This document shows, piece after piece, positions 9,466-24,558 of a DNA stretch of 64,000 bases (the stretch's first letter is position 1; each line of letters starts with the position of its first letter). Origin of the DNA: Trueperaceae bacterium (GTDB taxonomy: Bacteria > Deinococcota > Deinococci > Deinococcales > Trueperaceae); NCBI GenBank assembly GCA_965215565.1, contig CBDCDZ010000004.1:672001-736000 (forward strand), in the 5' to 3' direction. The notes under the pieces were generated by a model. The model worked only from the letters and a program-made list of their open reading frames with translations. It had not been told where the DNA came from and did no database searches. The position numbers and the translations under genes are program-made.

Positions 9466-9681
9466 CTGACGCTATTATAGCGCGTCGCTACCGCCATAGC
9501 TGTTTCGGGACGAGCGGCGAAACGTGGTCACGGTCTCAAATAAACAGCAGTTCCAAAACATACTGAGACAAAGTGTCGCAGGTATCATTACCGAACGTGT
9601 GCTGCTTACGCAGTTTTCCGAAGGAAACGACGTTCTCAAAAGTAAGAGTGTCTCAAACCAGATGAACTTAGTATAGAGTTG

Positions 9682-10620
9682 TCAAGCCCCCTTCCACCTC
9701 TGTGGGTGCTGCTGAGTGACTTGCAGCATGAAACGAAAGAGTTCTCTTGCGAGATAGGTTTTGAGACTTCTTAGAGCAGCCCGGCGGGTCTTGCCTTGCT
9801 GCTGTTTCTTGTCGAGATAGGCTCTTGTCGGTTCGCTGTGGCGCAGTCTGACTTGGGCAATCATGTGAAAGGTGCGGTTGAGCCGACGGTTGCCGCCGAT
9901 GTTGAGTTGCCTTCTCTTCTGACCACCAGAAGAGCGCTCGACAGGCGCACAACCTGAATACATGGCAAAGGCGTGTTGTGAACGAAAGCGTCGGATGTCA
10001 CCTGCTTCAGCAAGTAGCGTGGCGGCGTGAACGACGCCGACGCCAAAGACCTCTAAGAGTTCAGGCATCAGTTCGTCAACGAGGGCTTTCATCGCCTGCT
10101 CGAGCGTCTTGAGTTGTTCTTTAAGCACTGCAATAACGGCTTCGACGGCTTGGCGAGCCACCTCTAGCTCAAGGCTCGCTAAGCTCAGCTTGTGCGCTGT
10201 AAGCTGTTTAGCTAGCGCTTCTCGGGTGCGGGTCAGATGTTTGAGGTCTTCAACCGCTTGCCGAGGTGCAAACGTAGTCAGCTCAGGATTAGCCAAAGCA
10301 GCCCGAGCTACGTTTTCAGCGTCTACCTCATCACTCTTCTTGCGTCCTCTTTTGCTGCGGTACTGACTCGTCAGACTCGGACTAATGTCCACAACCTTAT
10401 GGTCCTGCCCGAGCAACGCTTGACTCAACCTCCGAGCAAAGGGGTTATTCGCCCCTTCAATAGCGCACCGCTGAACGTCATAGCGCTTTATCCAGTGCTC
10501 CAAAGTTGCCAAGCCCTCAGCCGTATTCGTAACGGTGCAGTGACCTAATACCTTGCCCTGTTTATCTAACGCTGCTGCGGTATGGCTCTGCGGATGTGGA
10601 TCAACCCCTATAATGACCAT
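9682..10620 (-). CDS. IS110 recombinase/transposase (DEDD RuvC plus Tnp20 serine domain)
   Basis: GVD, IEG and KSDEVDA acidic tetrad; GCAPVERSSG serine motif; GNRRLN; AAGGAGG RBS. Confidence 0.97.
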   Translation of the reverse strand: MVIIGVDPHPQSHTAAALDKQGKVLGHCTVTNTAEGLATLEHWIKRYDVQRCAIEGANNPFARRLSQALLGQDHKVVDISPSLTSQYRSKRGRKKSDEVDAENVARAALANPELTTFAPRQAVEDLKHLTRTREALAKQLTAHKLSLASLELEVARQAVEAVIAVLKEQLKTLEQAMKALVDELMPELLEVFGVGVVHAATLLAEAGDIRRFRSQHAFAMYSGCAPVERSSGGQKRRQLNIGGNRRLNRTFHMIAQVRLRHSEPTRAYLDKKQQQGKTRRAALRSLKTYLARELFRFMLQVTQQHPQRWKGA

Positions 10621-10639
10621 ACAACCTCCTTAGGTTGCT

Positions 10640-10779
10640 GCTCACGGTAGCTGCTTATCCGTCTATGAGGCTACTAAGCGTCTTAGTATCAGGCAAGCTC
10701 CGTGTAGCTTAGTGAGCGAGGTGTGCAGTTCATCTGTTAGCCCTAAAGCTGATACTTGCTGGGCATCACCTCGCTTCTC
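10640..10779 (-). ncRNA. IS110 bridge RNA with target-binding and donor-binding loops
   Basis: LTG AGCAAGTATC (10751-60), RTG CAGATGA (10730-36), LDG ATACTAAG (10682-89), RDG ATAGACGGA (10658-66), each pair inside a closing stem; RNA ends are approximate. Confidence 0.9.
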
Positions 10780-10800
10780 TTAATATACGGATACCTGCTA

Positions 10801-15396: not shown

Positions 15397-15466
15397 GCTG
15401 CTCAGCGTATCAGGTTCGGCTTAGAGGAGTTTTAGAACGGGGACAATGTGAGGTTTTTGGCAAGAA

Positions 15467-15692
15467 CAGCAGGTATCCGTATATTAAATGAGGTGCTGCT
15501 AGGCAGCAAACTGCGTAACTAAGTACTCCAGCCTAAATAATCTAAACTATTTTGGAAAGATTTCTCCCTGTAAGATGCGTTTCGTCAACCTCTTTAGTTT
15601 AGGTTATTTCCACGCACCTACTTATCATGTATATTCTGAGATGAGATTCCGTTAAGCTGCGCCTAACTGTCTCAATATGTCACGGAACTGCT
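15467..15692 (-). mobile_element. Degenerate MITE A copy carrying an IS110 left-end junction
   Basis: 15468-15487 is identical to the reverse complement of 10780-10799; MITE start AGCAGTTCCGTGACATATTGAGACA read on minus from 15692. Confidence 0.75.
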
Positions 15693-15753
15693 CTCATAAA
15701 GACGCATACATGAAGACGCGTAGCGCGGTTCACCGCACTGATAAGATGCCCCT

Positions 15754-16338
15754 ATGAATATCGCTACAGTGCTCTATCACGAGGTTCACGAGCTGGATGT
15801 GGTCAGTGTGTATAGCGTGATCCGTGCGGCGTCGAATTCCGTAGCAGAAGATGACCTCAACCTCTTCACCACGGCGAAGTCGCGCAACTCGGTGCAGACC
15901 TCCGGCGGGCTGACCGTCACACCGCAGTGGGCGTTCATGAGCGCGCCCGAGCCAGACGTGCTCGTCATTCCGGGGGGCGCAGGCGTGGACGCGGCGAGCC
16001 GCGACAAGGCGCTGACCTCTTACTTGAAGGACAGAGCGGCGGGGGCGCGGCTGCTCGTGAGCGTCGGCACGGGCGCGTTTTTGCTGGGCGAACTTGGGCT
16101 TTTGCGCGATCTGCGGGCGACGACGTGGCTGCCACTCCGTGAGCGGCTACTAGACTACGAAGTCGGCGAGGTGGTCGAGGCGAGAGTCGTTAAAAACGAG
16201 CGCATCTGGTGCGCGGGCGGCGCGTCGGCGGGGTTGGACGTGGGGTTGGAGCTGCTGCACGAGTTTTACGGTGAAGAAATCGCGGCGAAGGCGGCGGAAC
16301 GCCTCGCGTATCCCTTTTGGCAGCCCGTAGCGCTGTAA
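15754..16338 (+). CDS. DJ-1/PfpI family protein
   Basis: DVLVIPGG and SVGTGAFLL (usual Cys replaced by Gly). Confidence 0.85.
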   Translation: MNIATVLYHEVHELDVVSVYSVIRAASNSVAEDDLNLFTTAKSRNSVQTSGGLTVTPQWAFMSAPEPDVLVIPGGAGVDAASRDKALTSYLKDRAAGARLLVSVGTGAFLLGELGLLRDLRATTWLPLRERLLDYEVGEVVEARVVKNERIWCAGGASAGLDVGLELLHEFYGEEIAAKAAERLAYPFWQPVAL

Positions 16339-16342
16339 GGTC

Positions 16343-17254
16343 ATGCAGGTCTTGAACTGCCCGGTTGACGAAGCGATGTGGCGACGGTGGGAGGCGCATT
16401 TTGCGCCCCAAGCGCAACCTTTCTTTCTCTCTGAAGGTTGCGCAGGTATGTTTGCGTCACAGGTGCGCTGGACGCGGCGCGAGTTCGGCGAGATGCGTGC
16501 GCCACTCAGTCTCAGTGATACGTTTCAGCTTTATGAGGTCAGGGCCGAAGCAACGTGGGCGTTGTGGTTGGACGAAGCAGCGTTCTTTAGCCTGTCGGCG
16601 TCGGCGCGGCGTCTGCTGCTTGAGGAGCAGCGACGTTTAGGGCGCGGCGGTGTGGTTGCTTTGGATGATTGGCTGGATAAGGCTGGACCTGCTGACAGCG
16701 TTCTGCTCGAGGCGGCGGCGGACGGCAGTTCGTTCGTCTGGTGGACCTCTTTGTGGCGCAAGCTTACGCCCGCTCTTCGTCGGCGTGTCTTACTGTCCTT
16801 CGTCGCATCTGAACGGCTACCTTGCGAGCGCCACAACCTTTCTAAGGAACGTTGGCAAGAGGTTGACGCCCGCTTTCCGGCTGTTCGCTCCTTAACGGGC
16901 ATGTTCGTTTCTGAAAGCGGCGCGAACTGCTTGAGCACGGTGGTGGCGGCGTGCGGCGTTCCTGCGGTAGCTGAGGTCTGGCTCCACTCGGCTCCTTTTT
17001 CGAGGTGGTTAGAGGCTCGAGCGACAGAGACGGACGATCTCGACGCGCTAGGAACAGTTCTGGTGTGGCGGTCGCAGGATGAAGTTCAACACGCGGCACT
17101 TTGTTTGGGTGACGGCTGGGCGCTCCACAAGGAGGCGCAGGCGTGGTTCGCGCCGCGTCAGGTGGCGGCGCTGAGTGACGTGAGAAAACGTTGGGACACA
17201 CCGGACAGTTCGGTCACGGGGTACGCCGTAGAGTGGAGCCATAGAAAGAGGTGA
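16343..17254 (+). CDS. Hypothetical protein with possible C-terminal papain/NlpC-like Cys-His domain
   Basis: SGANCLS and QHAALCLGDG motifs. Confidence 0.55.
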   Translation: MQVLNCPVDEAMWRRWEAHFAPQAQPFFLSEGCAGMFASQVRWTRREFGEMRAPLSLSDTFQLYEVRAEATWALWLDEAAFFSLSASARRLLLEEQRRLGRGGVVALDDWLDKAGPADSVLLEAAADGSSFVWWTSLWRKLTPALRRRVLLSFVASERLPCERHNLSKERWQEVDARFPAVRSLTGMFVSESGANCLSTVVAACGVPAVAEVWLHSAPFSRWLEARATETDDLDALGTVLVWRSQDEVQHAALCLGDGWALHKEAQAWFAPRQVAALSDVRKRWDTPDSSVTGYAVEWSHRKR

Positions 17255-17935
17255 GTGATGGCCCGAGTCATCGTCTTTGATGTGAATGAAACGCTTTTAG
17301 ACTTGAACGATCTAGCCCCGTATTTCGAGCGTGCGTTTGGCGATAGAGCGGTGCTGGACGCTTGGTTCAAGCAGATGATTGAGTCCGCGATGGTCGGCGT
17401 GATTACGGGTGCGTACGCGGACTTCGGTGAGGTGGCGCGAGCGGCTTTGGAGATGACCGCTAAGCGCGAAGGGGTTGACCTCTCCGAGGAAGACAGAAAC
17501 GCCATTTTGATGGGCGTGCGTAAATTGCCCCCGCATCCCGAGGTGAGAGACGCACTAGAAACCTTACAAGAGGGTGGTTTACGCCTCGCCGCCTTGACCA
17601 ATTCAACATTAGAGGTGGCGCAGTCACAACTGACACAAGCAGGCTTAGCAGGGCTTTTCGAACAGATTCTTTCGGCCGACAGCGTCAAGCAGCTTAAACC
17701 CGCCGCTGAGGTTTATGAAGAAGCTGCCAAAGCTCTTGGTGTTGAGACCTCTGAGATGCGGCTCGTAGCGGCGCACGCTTGGGATATCGCGGGGGCGATG
17801 AGGGCGGGCTGCGCGGGCGCGTTCGTGGCGCGTCCGGGCAAGGTTTTAGACCCGCTCGCGCCCGAGCCGGATGTGGTGGGGGATGATTTGTTGGAGGTGG
17901 CGCGGAAGATTCTCGAGGTGGAGGGCGCGGTGTAG
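17255..17935 (+). CDS. Haloacid dehalogenase type II
   Basis: FDVNETLLD, LTNS, KP, AAHAWD motifs. Confidence 0.9.
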   Translation: MMARVIVFDVNETLLDLNDLAPYFERAFGDRAVLDAWFKQMIESAMVGVITGAYADFGEVARAALEMTAKREGVDLSEEDRNAILMGVRKLPPHPEVRDALETLQEGGLRLAALTNSTLEVAQSQLTQAGLAGLFEQILSADSVKQLKPAAEVYEEAAKALGVETSEMRLVAAHAWDIAGAMRAGCAGAFVARPGKVLDPLAPEPDVVGDDLLEVARKILEVEGAV

Positions 17936-17983
17936 GGACCGCGAGGTAGCGCTGCGCACGAACCGATGTGAGACAGCGCTGAT

Positions 17984-18012
17984 GTAAGGGAGGGTTTCAA
18001 ACCCTCCCCTAC
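17984..18012 (-). repeat. REP-like palindrome (GTAG type)
   Basis: Minus strand GTAGGGAGGGTTTGAAACCCTCCCTTAC; a similar GTAGGGACAA..TTGCCCCT lies at 45592-45618. Confidence 0.55.
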
Positions 18013-18073
18013 GCCGCTCACTTCATCCCCAAAGACCTCTTGACACCTTCGCCTCGAGCCTGCTAACCTCTTA

Positions 18074-18097
18074 ATATATGAAGATATGTTCAGATAT
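18074..18097 (+). promoter_or_regulatory. SmtB/ArsR-type operator
   Basis: ATATATGAA-N6-TTCAGATAT inverted repeat with TGAA..TTCA core just before the ATG at 18104. Confidence 0.75.
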
Positions 18098-18103
18098 AAG
18101 GCT

Positions 18104-18400
18104 ATGAACAACGAATTCACACAAAACACTGCGATTCAACTCGCCGAACTCTTCCGTACGCTCGGCGACAGCGCCCGCATCCTCATCCTCGCCGCGCTGA
18201 GCGAACGCGAGCACAGCGTGAGCGACCTCGCCGAACGCGCCAACCTGAGCGAGTCCGCCGCCTCACATCACCTGCGGCATCTGCGGCAGACGCGGCTCGT
18301 CAAAGCGAGGAAAGAGGGGCGTCACGTCTTCTATAGCCTGGACGACGAGCACGTAGAGCAGCTCTTGAGGTGCGGACTCGAGCACGTCTTGCACGGCTGA
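18104..18400 (+). CDS. ArsR/SmtB metal-sensing repressor (alpha5 Zn/Co type)
   Basis: SESAASHHLR and YSLDDEHV..LEH motifs. Confidence 0.92.
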   Translation: MNNEFTQNTAIQLAELFRTLGDSARILILAALSEREHSVSDLAERANLSESAASHHLRHLRQTRLVKARKEGRHVFYSLDDEHVEQLLRCGLEHVLHG

Positions 18401-18428
18401 AACCGAGCTTCGCCGAACGCTTAATCTC

Positions 18429-19361
18429 ATGGGGGGAATAGTGGCACACGCTCACTCAGATGGTCACGCGCACTCTCACGCGCCTAAAAACTTCGGACGC
18501 GCCTTCGCGATTGGCATCGGGCTGAATACGCTCTACGTCATCGTCGAAGTCGTCATCGGTCTGAGCATCGGCTCGCTGGGTCTCATCGCCGATGCGGGTC
18601 ATAACGCTAGCGACGTGCTCTCGCTCATCATCGCTTGGGTGGGTGCGAGTTTGGCGCGGCGCAGCCCGAGCGCGCGTTACACGTACGGCTTAAAGCGCTC
18701 ACCGATCATCGCCTCGCTCTTCAACGCGCTCTTACTCTTCGGCGCGATGAGCGTCGTGACCTGGGAGGCGGTTCAGCGACTGCAAGACCCCGCGCCGCTG
18801 CCTGGTCTGACGATAGTCTGGGTGACGCTCGTCGGGCTCGTGGTGAATTTCGGCACGGCGTTTTTGTTCGTGCGCGGGCGCGAAGACCTCAATATCAGGG
18901 GCGCGTTCTTGCACATGATGGCGGACGGGCTCGTGACGCTGGGCGTGCTTCTCGCGGGCGTCGCCTTTATCTTCACGGACGCCTACTGGCTCGACCCCGT
19001 CATCAGCCTCGTCATCGTCGCCGTTGTGCTATGGAGCACCTGGGGGCTCTTCGCGGACGCTATACGTTTGTCGCTCGACGCTGTGCCGGAAGGCATCGAG
19101 CCCGACGAGGTGCATGACTACCTCAGGGGTCTGCCGAGTGTCAAAGAGGTCCACGACCTCCACATCTGGGCGATGAGCACGACTGAAACCGCGCTCACCG
19201 CGCACCTCGTTCTAACCGATGAGGCGGCAGCGGGCAATGGGCTGCTCGAGAGAGCGAACGAGGGCTTGCACGACCGCTTCGAGATCGTGCATACGACGTT
19301 GCAGCTCGAGTACGGCGAGCCCGCCGACCCCTGCGGTCAAGCCTCGCCCGAGGTTGTTTAG
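18429..19361 (+). CDS. czcD: Cation diffusion facilitator, Co/Zn/Cd efflux
   Basis: DAGHNASD, AFLHMMAD, HDLHIW motifs; His-rich N-terminus. Confidence 0.9.
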   Translation: MGGIVAHAHSDGHAHSHAPKNFGRAFAIGIGLNTLYVIVEVVIGLSIGSLGLIADAGHNASDVLSLIIAWVGASLARRSPSARYTYGLKRSPIIASLFNALLLFGAMSVVTWEAVQRLQDPAPLPGLTIVWVTLVGLVVNFGTAFLFVRGREDLNIRGAFLHMMADGLVTLGVLLAGVAFIFTDAYWLDPVISLVIVAVVLWSTWGLFADAIRLSLDAVPEGIEPDEVHDYLRGLPSVKEVHDLHIWAMSTTETALTAHLVLTDEAAAGNGLLERANEGLHDRFEIVHTTLQLEYGEPADPCGQASPEVV

Positions 19362-19489
19362 GAAGGGCGAGAGCTATACCGTTCGCACCGTTTAGGCGAA
19401 TTTATCGGTGGCGTCGAGGTGACCATTGTCCCCCGGACAGCGTGACAAAATGAATCGATGGACTTTCACCGAGAGAGAACCCCCTAGTT

Positions 19490-20134
19490 ATGACCCGCCC
19501 CCAGAAACTCACCTTAGCCACCTTAGCCGTCCTGATACTCGCGGCTCTGGGGTGGTTGGTCTATATCCTCTTCGCCCCCCAAGAAGACCCGCTCGCCAGC
19601 ACGCTGCAACGCGGTTACGAAGGTCAGCCTACGCTCGGCAACGACGACGCGCCCGTCAAGGTCATCTTCTTCGAAAACTTTTTGTGTGAGCACTGTCGGG
19701 CGTTCGAGGCAAACGTCATGCCGCAGCTTAAACGCGACTATATCGACACGGGAGACGTCGAGGCGTACTACGTCAACCTTGCGTGGGGCGGCGAACGCGC
19801 TCTCCTAGCGGGTCTAGCGGGCGAGTGCGCCTACGCACAGGATGAGGCGGCGTTTTGGGACTACAAGTCCGCGCTCTACGAGGCGCAAGAGACCTGGCAG
19901 GGAGTGAACGATTTAGCGGCGGCAGCTCGAGATATCGACGCTTTGGACGCCGACGCGCTCCGCACTTGCGTCCAAGAGGCGCGCTACCAAGAGGAGGTTC
20001 AGCGCGACTTGGACCTCGCCGAGCGCGTCGGCGTGCAGGGTACGCCCTCGCTCGTGGTGGGTAATCAAGGCTTCCAAGGTCCGAGCTACCACACGTTGCG
20101 GCGCGAAATTGAGGCGCAGCTTCGCGGGAGCTAA
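19490..20134 (+). CDS. DsbA-family thiol-disulfide oxidoreductase
   Basis: CEHC, GVQGTP, N-terminal membrane anchor. Confidence 0.9.
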   Translation: MTRPQKLTLATLAVLILAALGWLVYILFAPQEDPLASTLQRGYEGQPTLGNDDAPVKVIFFENFLCEHCRAFEANVMPQLKRDYIDTGDVEAYYVNLAWGGERALLAGLAGECAYAQDEAAFWDYKSALYEAQETWQGVNDLAAAARDIDALDADALRTCVQEARYQEEVQRDLDLAERVGVQGTPSLVVGNQGFQGPSYHTLRREIEAQLRGS

Positions 20135-20202
20135 CGCGGCACCCTACCTCGGCTGTTGCGCGGTTTCTTCGCTGAAAAGATGCGCGTGCTAAGCTCGAGG
20201 TC

Positions 20203-21270
20203 ATGGACACGCGCCCCAGCCTCCTAGACCTCAACCTCGCGGACCTCCCGACGGACGGACCGAGCTACCGCCGCACGCAGCTCGCCGGGTGGCTCTACGA
20301 GCGGGGCGCGCTCGACTTTGAGGAGATGAGCAACCTGCCGAGAGGCTGGCGCGAAACGCTCGCGGCGCACTACACGGTGAGCCCGTTCGCGCGTTCCGAA
20401 CGCTTCCCCTCGAAAGACGGCTCGGTGCGCTATCTCTTCACGCTCGCTGACGGCAAGCAGACTGAAGCCGTCTATATGCCCTACGCGGACCGCAAGACGG
20501 TCTGCATCTCCTCGATGGTGGGCTGCCCGGCGGGGTGCGCCTTCTGCGCGACGGGGGCGCTAGGCTTCGGGCGCAACTTGACGCGGGCGGAAACCTTGGC
20601 GCAACTCCTAGACGTGGCGAGAGCCGAAGGCTTCGCGCCTAAAGAGATTCGCAACGTCGTCTTGATGGGGATGGGCGAGGCGCTCCTCAACTACGACAAC
20701 GCGGTGGGCGCGATTCGCACGATGGTCCACCCGCAGGGGCTCGACATGTCGCCGCGCCGCATCACCTTATCCACGGTAGGCTTGCCGCAGAAGATTCGGC
20801 GGCTCGCCGGCGAGGACCTCTCGCTCGTGCTGGCGGTGAGCCTGCACGCGCCCGACGAGGAGACGCGCCGCGCCATCATCCCTACAGCGCACGCGCATTC
20901 GATAGACGACATCATCGCGTCGCTGCACGCCTGGTTTGAGGCGACGGGGCGGCGGGTGACGGTCGAATACACGATGTTGCAAGGCGTCAACGACGCGCTC
21001 TGGCAAGCGGAGGCGCTCGTGGAGCGTTTGGACGGACTTTTGGCGCACGTCAACCTCATCCCTTTCAACCCGTGGCAGGCGTCTCGGTTTCGCTCGAGCA
21101 CCACCGCTCAAATCAAAGCCTTTGAAACAACCCTGCGCCGCGCGGGGCTCTCCGTCTCGGTGCGCTTTAGTCGCGGGCGCGACGCGGGCGGCGCGTGCGG
21201 TCAACTCGCTCTGACGCAAACCCCTAGCCCACTGCCGAGCGGTGCGACGGGCGGACTATCTCCTCTGTAG
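20203..21270 (+). CDS. rlmN: 23S rRNA m2A2503 methyltransferase (radical SAM)
   Basis: [23 protein letters not shown] motifs. Confidence 0.95.
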
Positions 21271-21327
21271 TTTGAATCTATAGCTTAGACCTCTTCATGG
21301 TTTGATTGACCACGCCGCTCTATTATT

Positions 21328-21428
21328 TAGCAGTTCCACGACATACTGAGACAAAATGCCGCAGATATCATCTCGTAAAGTGCGTGCTACTCAAAGTGAG
21401 AGCGTCTCAAACCAGATGATACCTGCTA
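21328..21428 (+). mobile_element. MITE A, intact short copy (empty IS110 target)
   Basis: TAGCAGTTCC...CCAGATGATACCTGCTA with ATT on both flanks. Confidence 0.85.
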
Positions 21429-21701
21429 ATTCTTTCAGGCGGTGTACCACGTTTCGTATGTGCAGTAACGCAAGAGCCGCGAGAGAGGCAGATCAGTTTT
21501 TGCGTACACATAAAATGGGACACCTTCCCTTTCACGGCTGTGTTCTCCGCCACATCAAGTGGAGTGAAGATTCGGACACTCGCGCCCGAAAAGCCGTGCT
21601 CGTGTCGGATTTAATATATGAGGGTGTGCAAGGCGTACTACCATGTCCCGAATCTCGCTGTGTTTGCGCTCTCACGTAGGCGGCACACTTTGGAGGCATG
21701 A

Positions 21702-23282
21702 ATGAAGAGCATTACTTGCGGCGTTCTGATCATAGCGTCGGCTTGCGTGACTCTAGGTTACGCGCAGCCTAGCTGGGCTGAACCTGCTGCGCCCGCACCG
21801 TCACAAGCGTCGTCTTCGGACGAGCGGACGAGCTTGTCGGCGCTCATCAGAGAGACGCGCAGCAACCCCAAAAATGTTGAAGCGTGGCTCGCTTTGGGTC
21901 AGCGCTACCTGGATAACGGTGTGCTGGAGAAAGCCAAGGAGAGCTTTTTAGAGGCGGTCACGCTCGATTACCTCTCGGCGGAGGCGCATTTCGGCTTGGG
22001 GCTGACCGAGTACGCGCGGGGTGACTTCGCGGCTGCTCTATTCGAATTCGGCGAAGTGGCGCGTCTCTTCCCAACGCGCTTCGACGGTCACTACAACCGC
22101 GCCGTCACCCTAGCGAAGCTGCGCCGCACCGAGGAAGCGGTGAGCGCGTTTCAAGAGGCGATCGCCCAAGCCGAGCCCGAAGCGAGCGCCGAGGCGCGAG
22201 TAGACGCCTATTTGGGGCTCGCCGAACAGCTCAAGACGTTAGAGCGTTTCGGCGAGGCTGCTGAAGCCTACACCGCTGCGAGCGACGTGACGCAGGATAG
22301 TCAGCAGCGCGACGAGTTGACCTATAGACGCGCCGACGCGCTCTACCGCGCGGGGCAAGGGCTAGACGCGCTGCCCAGCTTGGGCGCTCTGGAGGGTGAC
22401 TACCGCGCCGACACGCTCGTCGCCGATATCTACGCGCAAGCCGGACAGAACGACTACGCCTTGCGTTCACTCAACCGCGCGATTCGCAACGCGGCGTCTG
22501 CGGGTGACACGGACGCGCAAGCTCGCCTCTTGACGGAACTCGGAACGTTGCAGCGCGAACTCGGGCGCGAGGCGGACGCGGTTAGCTCGTTCGAGCGGGC
22601 GGTGGAAGTTGACGGGGACTCGGGCCAAGCTCTATACAACTTAGGGCGCAGCCTCTTAGAGAGCGGACAGCCCGAAGCGGCGCGAGCGCCGCTCCAGCGG
22701 GCGCTCAAGGCGGAGAGCGCCGCTGAAACCGAAGGCGCGGTCTACCTCGCTCTAGCCAACGCCTTCGAGCAGCTTTCCCAGTTCGACGAAGCGCGCCGCA
22801 ACGCCGAAGCCGCCGCGCAGCGCCTTAGCGACGCTAGCGCGCGCAGCGACGCAACCTTTATCACCGGGCGCTCGCTCTACCGACTCGGCGACTACCGGGG
22901 CGCGCTCATCGCCCTAGAAGACGTTGTTGCCGCGCAGCCCGGAAACGCCGACGCGCAGCTCTGGGCGGGCTTGGCACACTATCAAGCGGAACAGTACAGG
23001 AGCGCCGCGCAGTTCTTTGAACGCGCCGTGCAACTGAACCCCGAAAGCGCCGAGGCGCGCGTCAACTTAGGCGCGGCGTACCTCGCAGCGGAGCGCTACG
23101 AAGACGCCGAGTTGGTCTACGAACTCCTCATCCAGCAGACCGGCGGCGACGCGGACACCTACTACAACCTGGGCTGGTCCCTCCTCTCGCAAGGGCGCGG
23201 CAACGAGGCGCGCCAAGCGTGGCAGCGTTCGTCGGAGCTAGGGTACACGCCCGCTCGCACCGCGCTGAGGCAGTATTTCTGA
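21702..23282 (+). CDS. Secreted tetratricopeptide-repeat protein
   Basis: Signal peptide plus many TPR units (AWLALG, AHFGLG, YNLG). Confidence 0.9.
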   Translation: MKSITCGVLIIASACVTLGYAQPSWAEPAAPAPSQASSSDERTSLSALIRETRSNPKNVEAWLALGQRYLDNGVLEKAKESFLEAVTLDYLSAEAHFGLGLTEYARGDFAAALFEFGEVARLFPTRFDGHYNRAVTLAKLRRTEEAVSAFQEAIAQAEPEASAEARVDAYLGLAEQLKTLERFGEAAEAYTAASDVTQDSQQRDELTYRRADALYRAGQGLDALPSLGALEGDYRADTLVADIYAQAGQNDYALRSLNRAIRNAASAGDTDAQARLLTELGTLQRELGREADAVSSFERAVEVDGDSGQALYNLGRSLLESGQPEAARAPLQRALKAESAAETEGAVYLALANAFEQLSQFDEARRNAEAAAQRLSDASARSDATFITGRSLYRLGDYRGALIALEDVVAAQPGNADAQLWAGLAHYQAEQYRSAAQFFERAVQLNPESAEARVNLGAAYLAAERYEDAELVYELLIQQTGGDADTYYNLGWSLLSQGRGNEARQAWQRSSELGYTPARTALRQYF

Positions 23283-23348
23283 GTTAGGAAGTCTCGAGTC
23301 CAGATGCGCAGAGTCAAGTCCTGTGTTGACGAATAAAAGAGCTTGTGA

Positions 23349-23381
23349 AGCAGCGCCCTCGGTTGAGGGCGCTGCTATTTT
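23349..23381 (+). terminator. Intrinsic terminator
   Basis: AGCAGCGCCCTC-GGTT-GAGGGCGCTGCT followed by ATTTT. Confidence 0.8.
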
Positions 23382-23410
23382 GCACCTTTTAACTTAGCTG
23401 AGGCTTGATT

Positions 23411-23705
23411 TAGCGTTTCCACTTATCGTTGCTTGGACGAAGTCATTCCCGGAGGGAAACTTCGTAAGCGAAGCAACACTTCTTCGCAGATTTCACAGCT
23501 TGCTGTAACGGAACTTCATCATAATCAAGTGCGTGCTACATTTCTAAAAGCTGCTCCGCGTGAGCGAGCAGACGGAGTTTTCGCAAGGCGAATTACGAAG
23601 TTTTCCGATTACGTAGTTTTTGCGCAGCAAAAGGAAACAGTGTTTTCTACAGTGAGGGTGTTGCTTTGCAAAACTACGCATACTCAGACTAGATAATACC
23701 TGCTA
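23411..23705 (+). mobile_element. MITE A, long degenerate copy
   Basis: TAGCGTTTCCA...GTGCGTGCTA...CTAGATAATACCTGCTA. Confidence 0.7.
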
Positions 23706-23867
23706 CTTATCGCTAAAATCTCCAATTCCCGCTAGCGAACAAAGGGTTGCAACTCCTTGTTCATATTCAGTGAGCATTCCAGAGTAAAGCCACTACCATA
23801 TTTACAACGAGAAGCTCGAGAGAATTCCCCATGACCTCTTCTGCTCAGTCCGTCCAAGCGGAACGCA

Positions 23868-23978
23868 CAGCAGGTCCAAACTATACTGCGGCGGATGAAC
23901 GCAGGTGGCATCTCCAAACGTATAGGCTAGTCGGTGTTTTCTCGAGTGTGCGCGTTTTTGACCAGATGAACTTAGTAT
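23868..23978 (+). mobile_element. Degenerate MITE A copy ending in an IS110 right-end junction
   Basis: CAGCAGGTCCAAACTATACTG start; 23961-23978 is identical to 9657-9674. Confidence 0.7.
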
Positions 23979-24048
23979 GAAGGCACCGAAGAGATATCCC
24001 AACACAGCTTACACCCCTCTCGCCGCGAGGTTCGTTAAAATTGAGGTC

Positions 24049-24558
24049 ATGAAGCGACTTCTGATGCTAAGCTTCCTCCTAACCTCATTCGCCCTTGCTC
24101 AGCCCACCTGCGAAACTCTAGTGGATGACCTAGAGACCGCCTTTGGCGAAGCCGAGAGCCTCATGTCCGAAGTCGAAGTCGTCGCCAACGGGCGCGAGAT
24201 GGGCTACCAGAAAGCGCGGCTCTACCGGGACGACGCGGGCGAATTGCAGAGCGAAGTCATCGAGGAGCGCGGACAGCGCCCACCAGAGGACGAGGGCGAA
24301 GACGAGGGCGACGAGGAGTTTAGCTTTAGCTGCGAGGGCAACGAGTTGGAACTCTTAGGCAGCGACGGTTCGTACCGCTTGACCTTACAAGAGGACGACG
24401 AGGAGATTCCGGTGGACGAGTACCGGCTCGAGTTCACCCCCCGAGAGGGTCGCTACGTGCCGCGCTCTATCATCGCGAACTTCAATACGACGTTCGTGCT
24501 CATTCCGGTGAGGGGCACATTTACGACGAAGCTGAGCGAGTGGACGTTTCCTGAGTAG
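24049..24558 (+). CDS. Secreted hypothetical protein
   Basis: Signal peptide MKRLLMLSFLLTSFALA; TAAAAT 7 nt upstream. Confidence 0.7.
   Translation: MKRLLMLSFLLTSFALAQPTCETLVDDLETAFGEAESLMSEVEVVANGREMGYQKARLYRDDAGELQSEVIEERGQRPPEDEGEDEGDEEFSFSCEGNELELLGSDGSYRLTLQEDDEEIPVDEYRLEFTPREGRYVPRSIIANFNTTFVLIPVRGTFTTKLSEWTFPE

Follow-up and report, generated by a model that had tools for sequence, protein, structure and literature searches.

Was the 8.5-kb segment that runs from about position 15,468 to 23,978 of this DNA turned around by an IS110 recombinase, or do its two ends carry the scars of separate insertions? The window, which is the whole stretch of 64,000 nucleotides analysed here, belongs to the 4.49-Mb genome of a Trueperaceae bacterium, called G000 below. 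A first-pass annotation had noticed one IS110 half-junction at each end of the segment and proposed a bridge-mediated inversion between a target and an inverted donor, with two decayed insertions as the alternative.

The IS110 element and its target

The reference for the junctions was an intact element in the same window:

9666..10789, minus strand: intact IS110, 1,124 bp, between the cores at 9664-9665 and 10790-10791
9682-10620: IS110 recombinase, 312 aa, DEDD/Transposase_20
10621-10789: predicted bridge RNA of the intact IS110

The recombinase matched PF01548 (E 6e-22) and PF02371 (E 1e-20), showed the motifs D7, E55 and D98/D101 together with an SSGG carrying the catalytic serine, and was matched by the IS621 recombinase with an E value of 3e-16. 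The left non-coding region of the element folds well (z = -3.58) and contains two putative guides, an LTG-like AGCAAGTATC and an RTG-like CAGATGA, which match the target arms. Both guide-like stretches change along with the target in the relative G018, in the one comparison made. A sequence match to a promoter, TTGACA-18-TATATT, spans the computed circle junction and is a candidate promoter. From these features we place the element in the IS110 family, as a member of the IS621 type with a predicted RNA-guided function.

G000 holds seven near-identical intact copies and one decayed copy. All of them were found at the identical site, the seven intact copies with the core TC at both junctions; on the IS strand the target reads AGCAGGTA-TC-ATCTGGT, and its place is the right end of a repeat that resembles a MITE. 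This MITE is present in about 400 copies (402 intact target ends at up to 2 mismatches) and has a target duplication of 3 bp, which was exact in 143 of 200 cases against a shuffled mean of 6. No autonomous parent of the MITE was found among 18 candidates. Regarding the flanks of the intact IS110 copies, four had exact duplications, one was collinear in relatives and two were non-collinear.

The two junctions

The following features make up the two ends of the segment:

15467..15477, plus strand: left breakpoint of the inversion; LT and core (TC at 15476-15477), the last bases at the right end of a MITE, which form the left half of the target of the IS110
15478..15495, plus strand: RD stub; 10 nt agree fully with the IS left end and GAGGTG (IS +18 to +23) comes after them
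15494..15693, minus strand: body of a MITE (MITE2) from the ancestral DJ-1/ORF24049 spacer
15520..15624, no strand assigned: second, unrelated repeat of about 105 bp nested in MITE2, with 3 other copies at 95-98% identity
15694..15696, minus strand: first copy of the 3-bp MITE2 target duplication (TGA on the minus strand)
23868..23969, plus strand: body of another MITE (MITE1), RT and core (GA at 23968-23969); right inversion breakpoint
23970..23978, minus strand: LD stub, in which 6-9 nt come from the IS right end
23978..23980, plus strand: second copy of the MITE2 target duplication (TGA), where the ancestral spacer resumes

The 20-mer of the left junction and the 18-mer of the right one were both where the first-pass annotation had placed them. 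The 20-mer had 10 exact matches in G000, i.e. the seven intact copies and three orphans, and 11 matches when up to 3 mismatches were allowed. The 18-mer had nine exact matches (the seven intact copies, the decayed copy and the right end of the segment) and the count remained nine at 2 mismatches. Since the matches are restricted to IS copies and a few orphans, both strings are derived from the IS and did not arise by chance. The opposite orientation also held, with LT-core-RD on the plus strand and LD-core-RT on the minus strand, and there is no transposase between or beside the junctions, the nearest being the one at 9682-10620. What had been described as a likeness to the start of the bridge RNA is GAGGTG at 15490-15495, which corresponds to the IS left end at positions 18-23; a MITE body is indeed kept at both sites. 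The two junctions are real, a left (LT-core-RD) and a right (LD-core-RT) junction of an IS621-type IS110 that targets the MITE end.

Each end of the segment keeps an IS110 stub of fewer than 25 bases. The 18-mer closes with TAT, 3 nt that overlap sequence of the host and of the MITE end, since relatives read ATGAAG(G) there, and therefore the IS-specific length of the right stub is 6-9 nt. The donor arms break off after 6-23 nt in microhomology joins: the RD stub merges into MITE2 at GAGGTG, a join motif matching that of two other scars (C4:3341777 and L037 of the relative G002), and the last 3 nt of the LD stub are microhomology with the MITE2 end and the host. About 40-50 nt are missing from the right end of MITE2, while MITE1 matches the majority sequence of its class at 72 of 102 nt. 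When the segment was un-inverted computationally at the cores, one target and one donor resulted, and the product geometry predicted by the first-pass annotation, LT-RD and LD-RT on opposite strands, is the one present.

The terminal base of LT was also considered as a ground for its assignment to MITE1, given that 15 of 41 MITE1-like ends are followed by a G, as against 21 of 361 others. This assignment was given no weight, the class having been picked after the list was seen and the closest full-length matches of MITE1 ending in A.

Gene order in related genomes

For the gene order the relevant features are:

15476..23969, no strand assigned: inverted block, 8,494 bp, with DJ-1/PfpI, an unknown ORF, HAD, ArsR, a CDF transporter, DsbA, RlmN and TPR
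15754..16338, plus strand: DJ-1/PfpI gene, head-to-head with ORF24049 in relatives
24049..24558, plus strand: ORF24049, conserved, unannotated and without a Pfam match; right flank of the inversion

We searched 30 relatives and eight of them hold ORF24049; these eight share kinship and yet span five genera, G001 and G002 being of the same genus as G000. DJ-1 lies directly head-to-head with ORF24049 in five of the eight (G001, G002, G003, G005 and G009) and head-to-head across 3.8 kb in G014; in G018 the two genes are split over separate small contigs, and in G011, where ORF24049 is present, no DJ-1 match was found. In G000 both genes are on the same strand, 8.3 kb apart. Furthermore, the ancestral spacer between the two genes reads TTCA-TGA-AG(G) in G001 and G002, and in G000 one TGA comes before the left end of MITE2 (15694-15696) and the second comes after the right stub (23978-23980). 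As the two copies are now at opposite ends of the block, the insertion site of MITE2 has been split between them.

The head-to-head arrangement in six of the eight relatives and the split MITE2 duplication thus establish that the 8.5-kb block is inverted with respect to the relatives, with its breakpoints at the IS110 junctions and with one ancestral adjacency verified. On the left, G001 and G002 are homologous up to 15462. Gene order in relatives was the comparison on which the first-pass annotation had staked the inversion; the block is not collinear, and this result together with the split duplication refutes the alternative of two insertion scars in a collinear block.

The second ancestral adjacency would join the He_PIG gene to TPR; neither G001 nor G002 has it, and the neighbours that these two genomes have in common are others. 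Closer relatives informative for it did not appear in two metagenome scans, and the genome scan gave only G001. The samples X1 and X2 contain a strain at roughly 93-95% identity, with no breakpoint crossed among the contigs listed. The interior of the block is a patchwork of segments that are not linked in G001 or G002, so that the size which the block had during the event is an assumption. A 10-mer, GGAACTTAGT, near the He_PIG flank in G002 was treated as chance, and GC skew across the block was uninformative.

Regarding the duplication of MITE1, it is mismatched across LT and RT (GCA versus TTC). Among 13 equally diverged MITE copies the duplication was exact in two and all 3 bases were mismatched in five. 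Exchange of duplications between the ends is seen for MITE2 (TGA) and not for MITE1, and such an exchange is not specific to recombination between IS copies.

Of the contigs assembled from reads, one of X5, which may be the source sample and hence is not independent, spans 23637-24264 without differences, and none of the pieces listed bridges the left junction. A phase-variable invertible segment of the Piv type would show both orientations in the population; no strand-changing joint was found among the 15 of 54 joints that were listed, contig assembly being a step that drops rare variants.

Over 1.6 of the 4.58 Mb of G001 we compared 600 anchors with G000 and found 194 broken adjacencies. Only 9 of the 194 had both ends less than 30 kb apart in G000, and 4 of these 9 were inverted, the 8.5-kb block included. 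By chance about one close inverted pair could be expected genome-wide, and by rough arithmetic we estimate at about 0.2% the chance of an inverted pair that had been predicted beforehand from the junctions.

Orphan junctions and the role of the MITE

The genome-wide count of orphan half-junctions that the first-pass annotation had suggested gave a mixed answer: orphans do recur, nine of the left type and one of the right type in two genomes, but some of them are simple collinear scars. G000 has four left-type orphans (8-23 nt kept) and the single right-type orphan at the 8.5-kb block. G002 has one disrupted full copy, five left-type orphans (5 to about 65 nt, with just 5-9 nt in three of the five) and none of the right type, and in G001 we found no orphan junction of either type. 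The 9:1 bias has a binomial p of 0.02 for G000 and G002 together. Of the 1,124 nt of the IS none of the nine left stubs keeps more than about 65, and therefore the loss is not random but tied to the IS end. The break in several stubs falls at short words that occur both in the left end of the IS and in the body of the MITE. Selection for a retained -10 box, instead of ordered strand transfer, could be the cause of the left bias.

Seven of the nine left-type orphans were testable for collinearity, the tally leaving out the scars C4:269803 and G002 L034. Three of the seven were collinear in a relative, which means that scars alone do not imply rearrangement. Three others, those at the 8.5-kb block, L035 and L036, lie at adjacencies missing from both other genomes, and at L037 the adjacency is broken against G000 only. 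Leaving out the 8.5-kb block, 2-3 of 6 orphans are at broken adjacencies against a base rate near 0.2, which is suggestive only.

The MITE itself does not mark breakpoints in general. Gaps with a MITE were broken in 16 of 80 cases and gaps without a MITE in 62 of 348 (p = 0.63), and MITEs at broken adjacencies kept exact duplications in 11 of 12 cases. Since MITE gaps are no more often broken and the duplications are mostly intact, we rejected MITE-driven shuffling as a general cause.

Origin of the inversion

The explanation that we favour, with a probability of roughly 0.45 and as one of three routes between which sequence alone does not decide, is a single event in which the IS110 recombinase would have made both junctions at MITE1 and host repair would have joined the stubs to the MITE2 side. 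The recombinase would form LT1-RD and LD-RT1 at the MITE1 target, so that LT and RT would both derive from this one target. The event may have started with a local direct strand transfer from an IS copy in MITE2, or with an aborted insertion or copy-out at MITE1. Host repair would then attach both short stubs to the side of MITE2 via microhomology, and the loss of the IS body would be part of the same event. The step from strand transfer to inversion is one that we infer and that goes beyond the cited passages.

Several observations point to this single event. The surviving junctions are exactly the pair made by a reaction at MITE1, and both junctions of the MITE2 side are gone. The sole right-type scar among the 10 orphans sits at the reciprocal breakpoint. 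The 9:1 left bias parallels the about 10-fold preference for nLT-RD of CazIS110 (see below), what was lost is tied to the IS end, and MITEs are not breakpoints in general. Against it stand the left scars that form without rearrangement (3 of 7), the absence of the He_PIG/TPR adjacency from G001 and G002, the three G002 stubs of only 5-9 nt and the mismatched MITE1 duplication, although 5 of the 13 equally diverged copies look the same.

Moreover, the same end state could have been reached by recombination between two full inverted copies followed by two deletions. Homologous recombination between inverted IS copies produces inversions, with the target duplications swapped at the breakpoints. 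In this case MITE1 and MITE2 would each have received a full IS110 copy independently, the two facing opposite ways; RecA-type recombination would then have inverted the block, and each copy would have been lost later by a microhomology deletion of its own. We regard this as a close rival, only somewhat less probable than the single event. With 1.1 kb of identity it is the textbook route for IS-bounded inversions, it accounts for the split MITE2 duplication, the seven near-identical copies show that insertion was repeated, and the left scar is of the ordinary type of collinear sites, with the join motif of C4:3341777. Nevertheless, there are only stubs at the breakpoints where two long inverted copies should be, so that later deletions are required, and the right copy would have been lost by a type of scar seen at none of the nine other orphans. 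No clear reciprocal flank swap was found among the seven intact copies. Barring local hopping, it also calls for two insertions 8.5 kb apart when only about 13 of about 400 MITE ends have been hit.

A canonical bridge inversion, as the first-pass annotation proposed, would be a reaction between the MITE1 target and a complete LD-core-RD donor in MITE2, the IS bodies being lost before or after. The product geometry is exact, the reaction has been demonstrated for engineered IS621 in the passages cited of PMC11208160, and the junction in the middle of a tandem IS dimer could have served as donor, or else a circle junction that had been captured; tandem IS110 modules are reported as common elsewhere (n=437; 10.64898/2026.08.14.744561, in part). 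However, no LD-core-RD junction was found in the three genomes of the genus (G000, G001 and G002) and no tandem copies among the seven intact elements of G000. In addition, the canonical reaction is scarless and does not account for the two microhomology joins, where about 40-50 nt of MITE2 are also gone. The inversion and its geometry thus stand, whereas a clean reaction between target and donor is unlikely.

That IS110 was uninvolved, the order having changed otherwise (e.g. by MITE-MITE exchange or general shuffling) beside two independent scars, is highly improbable: the order of G000 is much shuffled relative to G001, with 194 adjacencies broken in 1.6 Mb and the 8.5-kb block among the 4 that are local and inverted, but a crossover would have been confined to MITE ends, where empty copies have about 17 bp in common, both breakpoints carry IS junctions of the predicted geometry when G000 has only five orphans, MITEs at broken adjacencies keep their duplications, and the split duplication directly beside the LD stub largely refutes it.

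Comparison with known systems

Recognition of repeats and inverted-repeat ends by IS110-family elements is known, from the parts of the literature that we cite. With the IS621-type IS110 of Durrant et al. 2024 (PMC11208160, passages cited) our element shares the DEDD and Transposase_20 recombinase, the 2-nt core, the LT-RD and LD-RT junctions, the targeting of dispersed repeats and a non-coding region on the left whose guides, predicted here, match target and donor; in that system, inversion between a target and an inverted donor yields the geometry of the 8.5-kb block. Unlike there, the target here is a MITE terminus with, as assigned, the core TC on the IS strand, and the inversion is natural and chromosomal, with no donor site found and with arms cut to stubs.

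Natural inversions at IS110 loci have also been described, 229 of them validated in the cited parts of Hu et al. 2026 (10.64898/2026.08.14.744561). They likewise show one-sided LD or RD boundaries and unequal behaviour of the arms. Those loci were filtered for an IS110 gene, whereas neither breakpoint of the 8.5-kb block has one, so that a transposase-anchored screen would probably miss it.

In direct transfer by CazIS110, the activity for nLT-RD exceeds that for LD-nRT about 10-fold (10.1101/2025.10.25.684509, excerpts). The transfers of CazIS110 and those of IS621 with half matches (Xie et al. 2026, 10.64898/2026.08.31.748434, excerpts) are top-strand-only and ordered, one arm suffices, and their favouring of LT-RD matches our 9:1 bias. 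These are results from in vitro assays and E. coli reporters, ours are genomic scars, and the main text of the CazIS110 paper does not contain the word "inversion". In the cited part of the work on ISPpu10 (10.64898/2026.03.19.712850) IS110 elements likewise lie in dispersed repeats at the borders of rearrangements, causation being left open; the amplifications there exceed 100 kb and lie between full copies, in contrast to the stub-bounded inversion of G000.

In homologous recombination of inverted IS copies the duplications are swapped at the breakpoints, as is seen here for MITE2, but the full copies are absent at the 8.5-kb block.

Engineered bridge inversions and natural inversions at IS110 loci are therefore already published. 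An inversion marked only by guide-sized IS110 stubs was not found in the literature searched, most subscription journals lying outside it, and neither was an RD-biased class of IS110 micro-scars, on which Fig. S5 of Hu et al. may bear. It is quite possible, at somewhat less than even odds, that the block is a natural chromosomal inversion which a bridge-RNA recombinase began and host repair completed, with nothing but guide-sized stubs left, and one case of a general scar class that has not been counted. Such a class would consist of aborted IS110 strand transfers by which chromosomes are rearranged, and after which micro-scars with an RD bias stay behind and a transposase does not; the two G002 orphan junctions at derived adjacencies hint at it as well.

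The locus bears on whether bridge recombinases themselves rearrange natural chromosomes or just supply homology. It offers a base-resolved natural case and a signature that can be searched for, namely breaks in synteny with LT-RD and LD-RT stubs but no transposase, and in the 9:1 scar bias the ordered strand transfer seen in vitro has its counterpart in genomes. If the reading is true, deletion and inversion by-products are relevant to IS110-based genome editors.

Finally, the inverted structure is likely to be fixed now. Its reversal would be an excision-type reaction, which is mostly single-stranded and, in the cited part of PMC13626964, inefficient for IS621 (about 1% versus 70% in vitro).

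Ends of the inverted block

The following features lie at or beside the ends of the 8.5-kb inverted block (window coordinates):

15457-15485 (+), promoter-like site
15520-15624, repeat of about 105 bp inside MITE2, the MITE body beside the left stub
23977-24558, ORF whose ATG at 23977 lies across the right junction
24049, likely conserved start of that same ORF

Regarding the left stub, the promoter-like site combines a host TTGGCA with the TATATT of the stub's right donor arm, at a spacing of 17 nt (10/12 match), and points toward the DJ-1 gene. Such sites numbered 2 against 0.8 expected, which is a weak excess. This site could have favoured the retention of the left scar.

The repeat inside MITE2 belongs to a second repeat family, with other copies in the same genome (G000) on contig CBDCDZ010000004.1 at 3126839, 4098906 and 242107, and the same nesting was found again at 3126839.

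Gene order and possible rearrangements in G000 and its relatives

In the whole-genome comparison of G000 with its congener G001, gene order was broken into blocks of a median 2.8 kb, and at the loci compared G001 and the second congener, G002, had a common gene order. The MITE was rejected as the cause of the shuffling in G000. A further local inversion signature was seen at contig positions 400822 and 406136, with a transposase-like sequence, putatively IS256-like by its motif, at one end.

In G002 there are two orphan left IS110 junctions, L035 (C2:1816083) and L036 (C2:2075325), whose gene adjacencies are absent from both G000 and G001. No reciprocal right junction was found in G002 for either one, and they are possibly one-sided IS110 rearrangements.

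IS110 copies and targets in G000

The following contig positions refer to G000. At 3452632-3453300 there is an IS110 copy with numerous small deletions and no left junction, preceded by a duplicate comprising an intact target and about 70 nt of MITE; the assembly has possibly merged an empty and a filled allele here. Another IS110 occupies 421020-421970 and is more divergent, at 56% amino-acid identity.

Genome-wide, 47 of the 292 scored MITE right ends carry recurring inserts of 21-24 nt, of several kinds, at most 2 nt from the IS110 core (for example at 122750, 804638, 18558 and 610154), which resemble the cyanobacterial SDR micro-elements, SDR5 among them. Finally, at 179848-179945 a 27-nt unit is repeated four times in tandem, each unit with one intact IS110 target.
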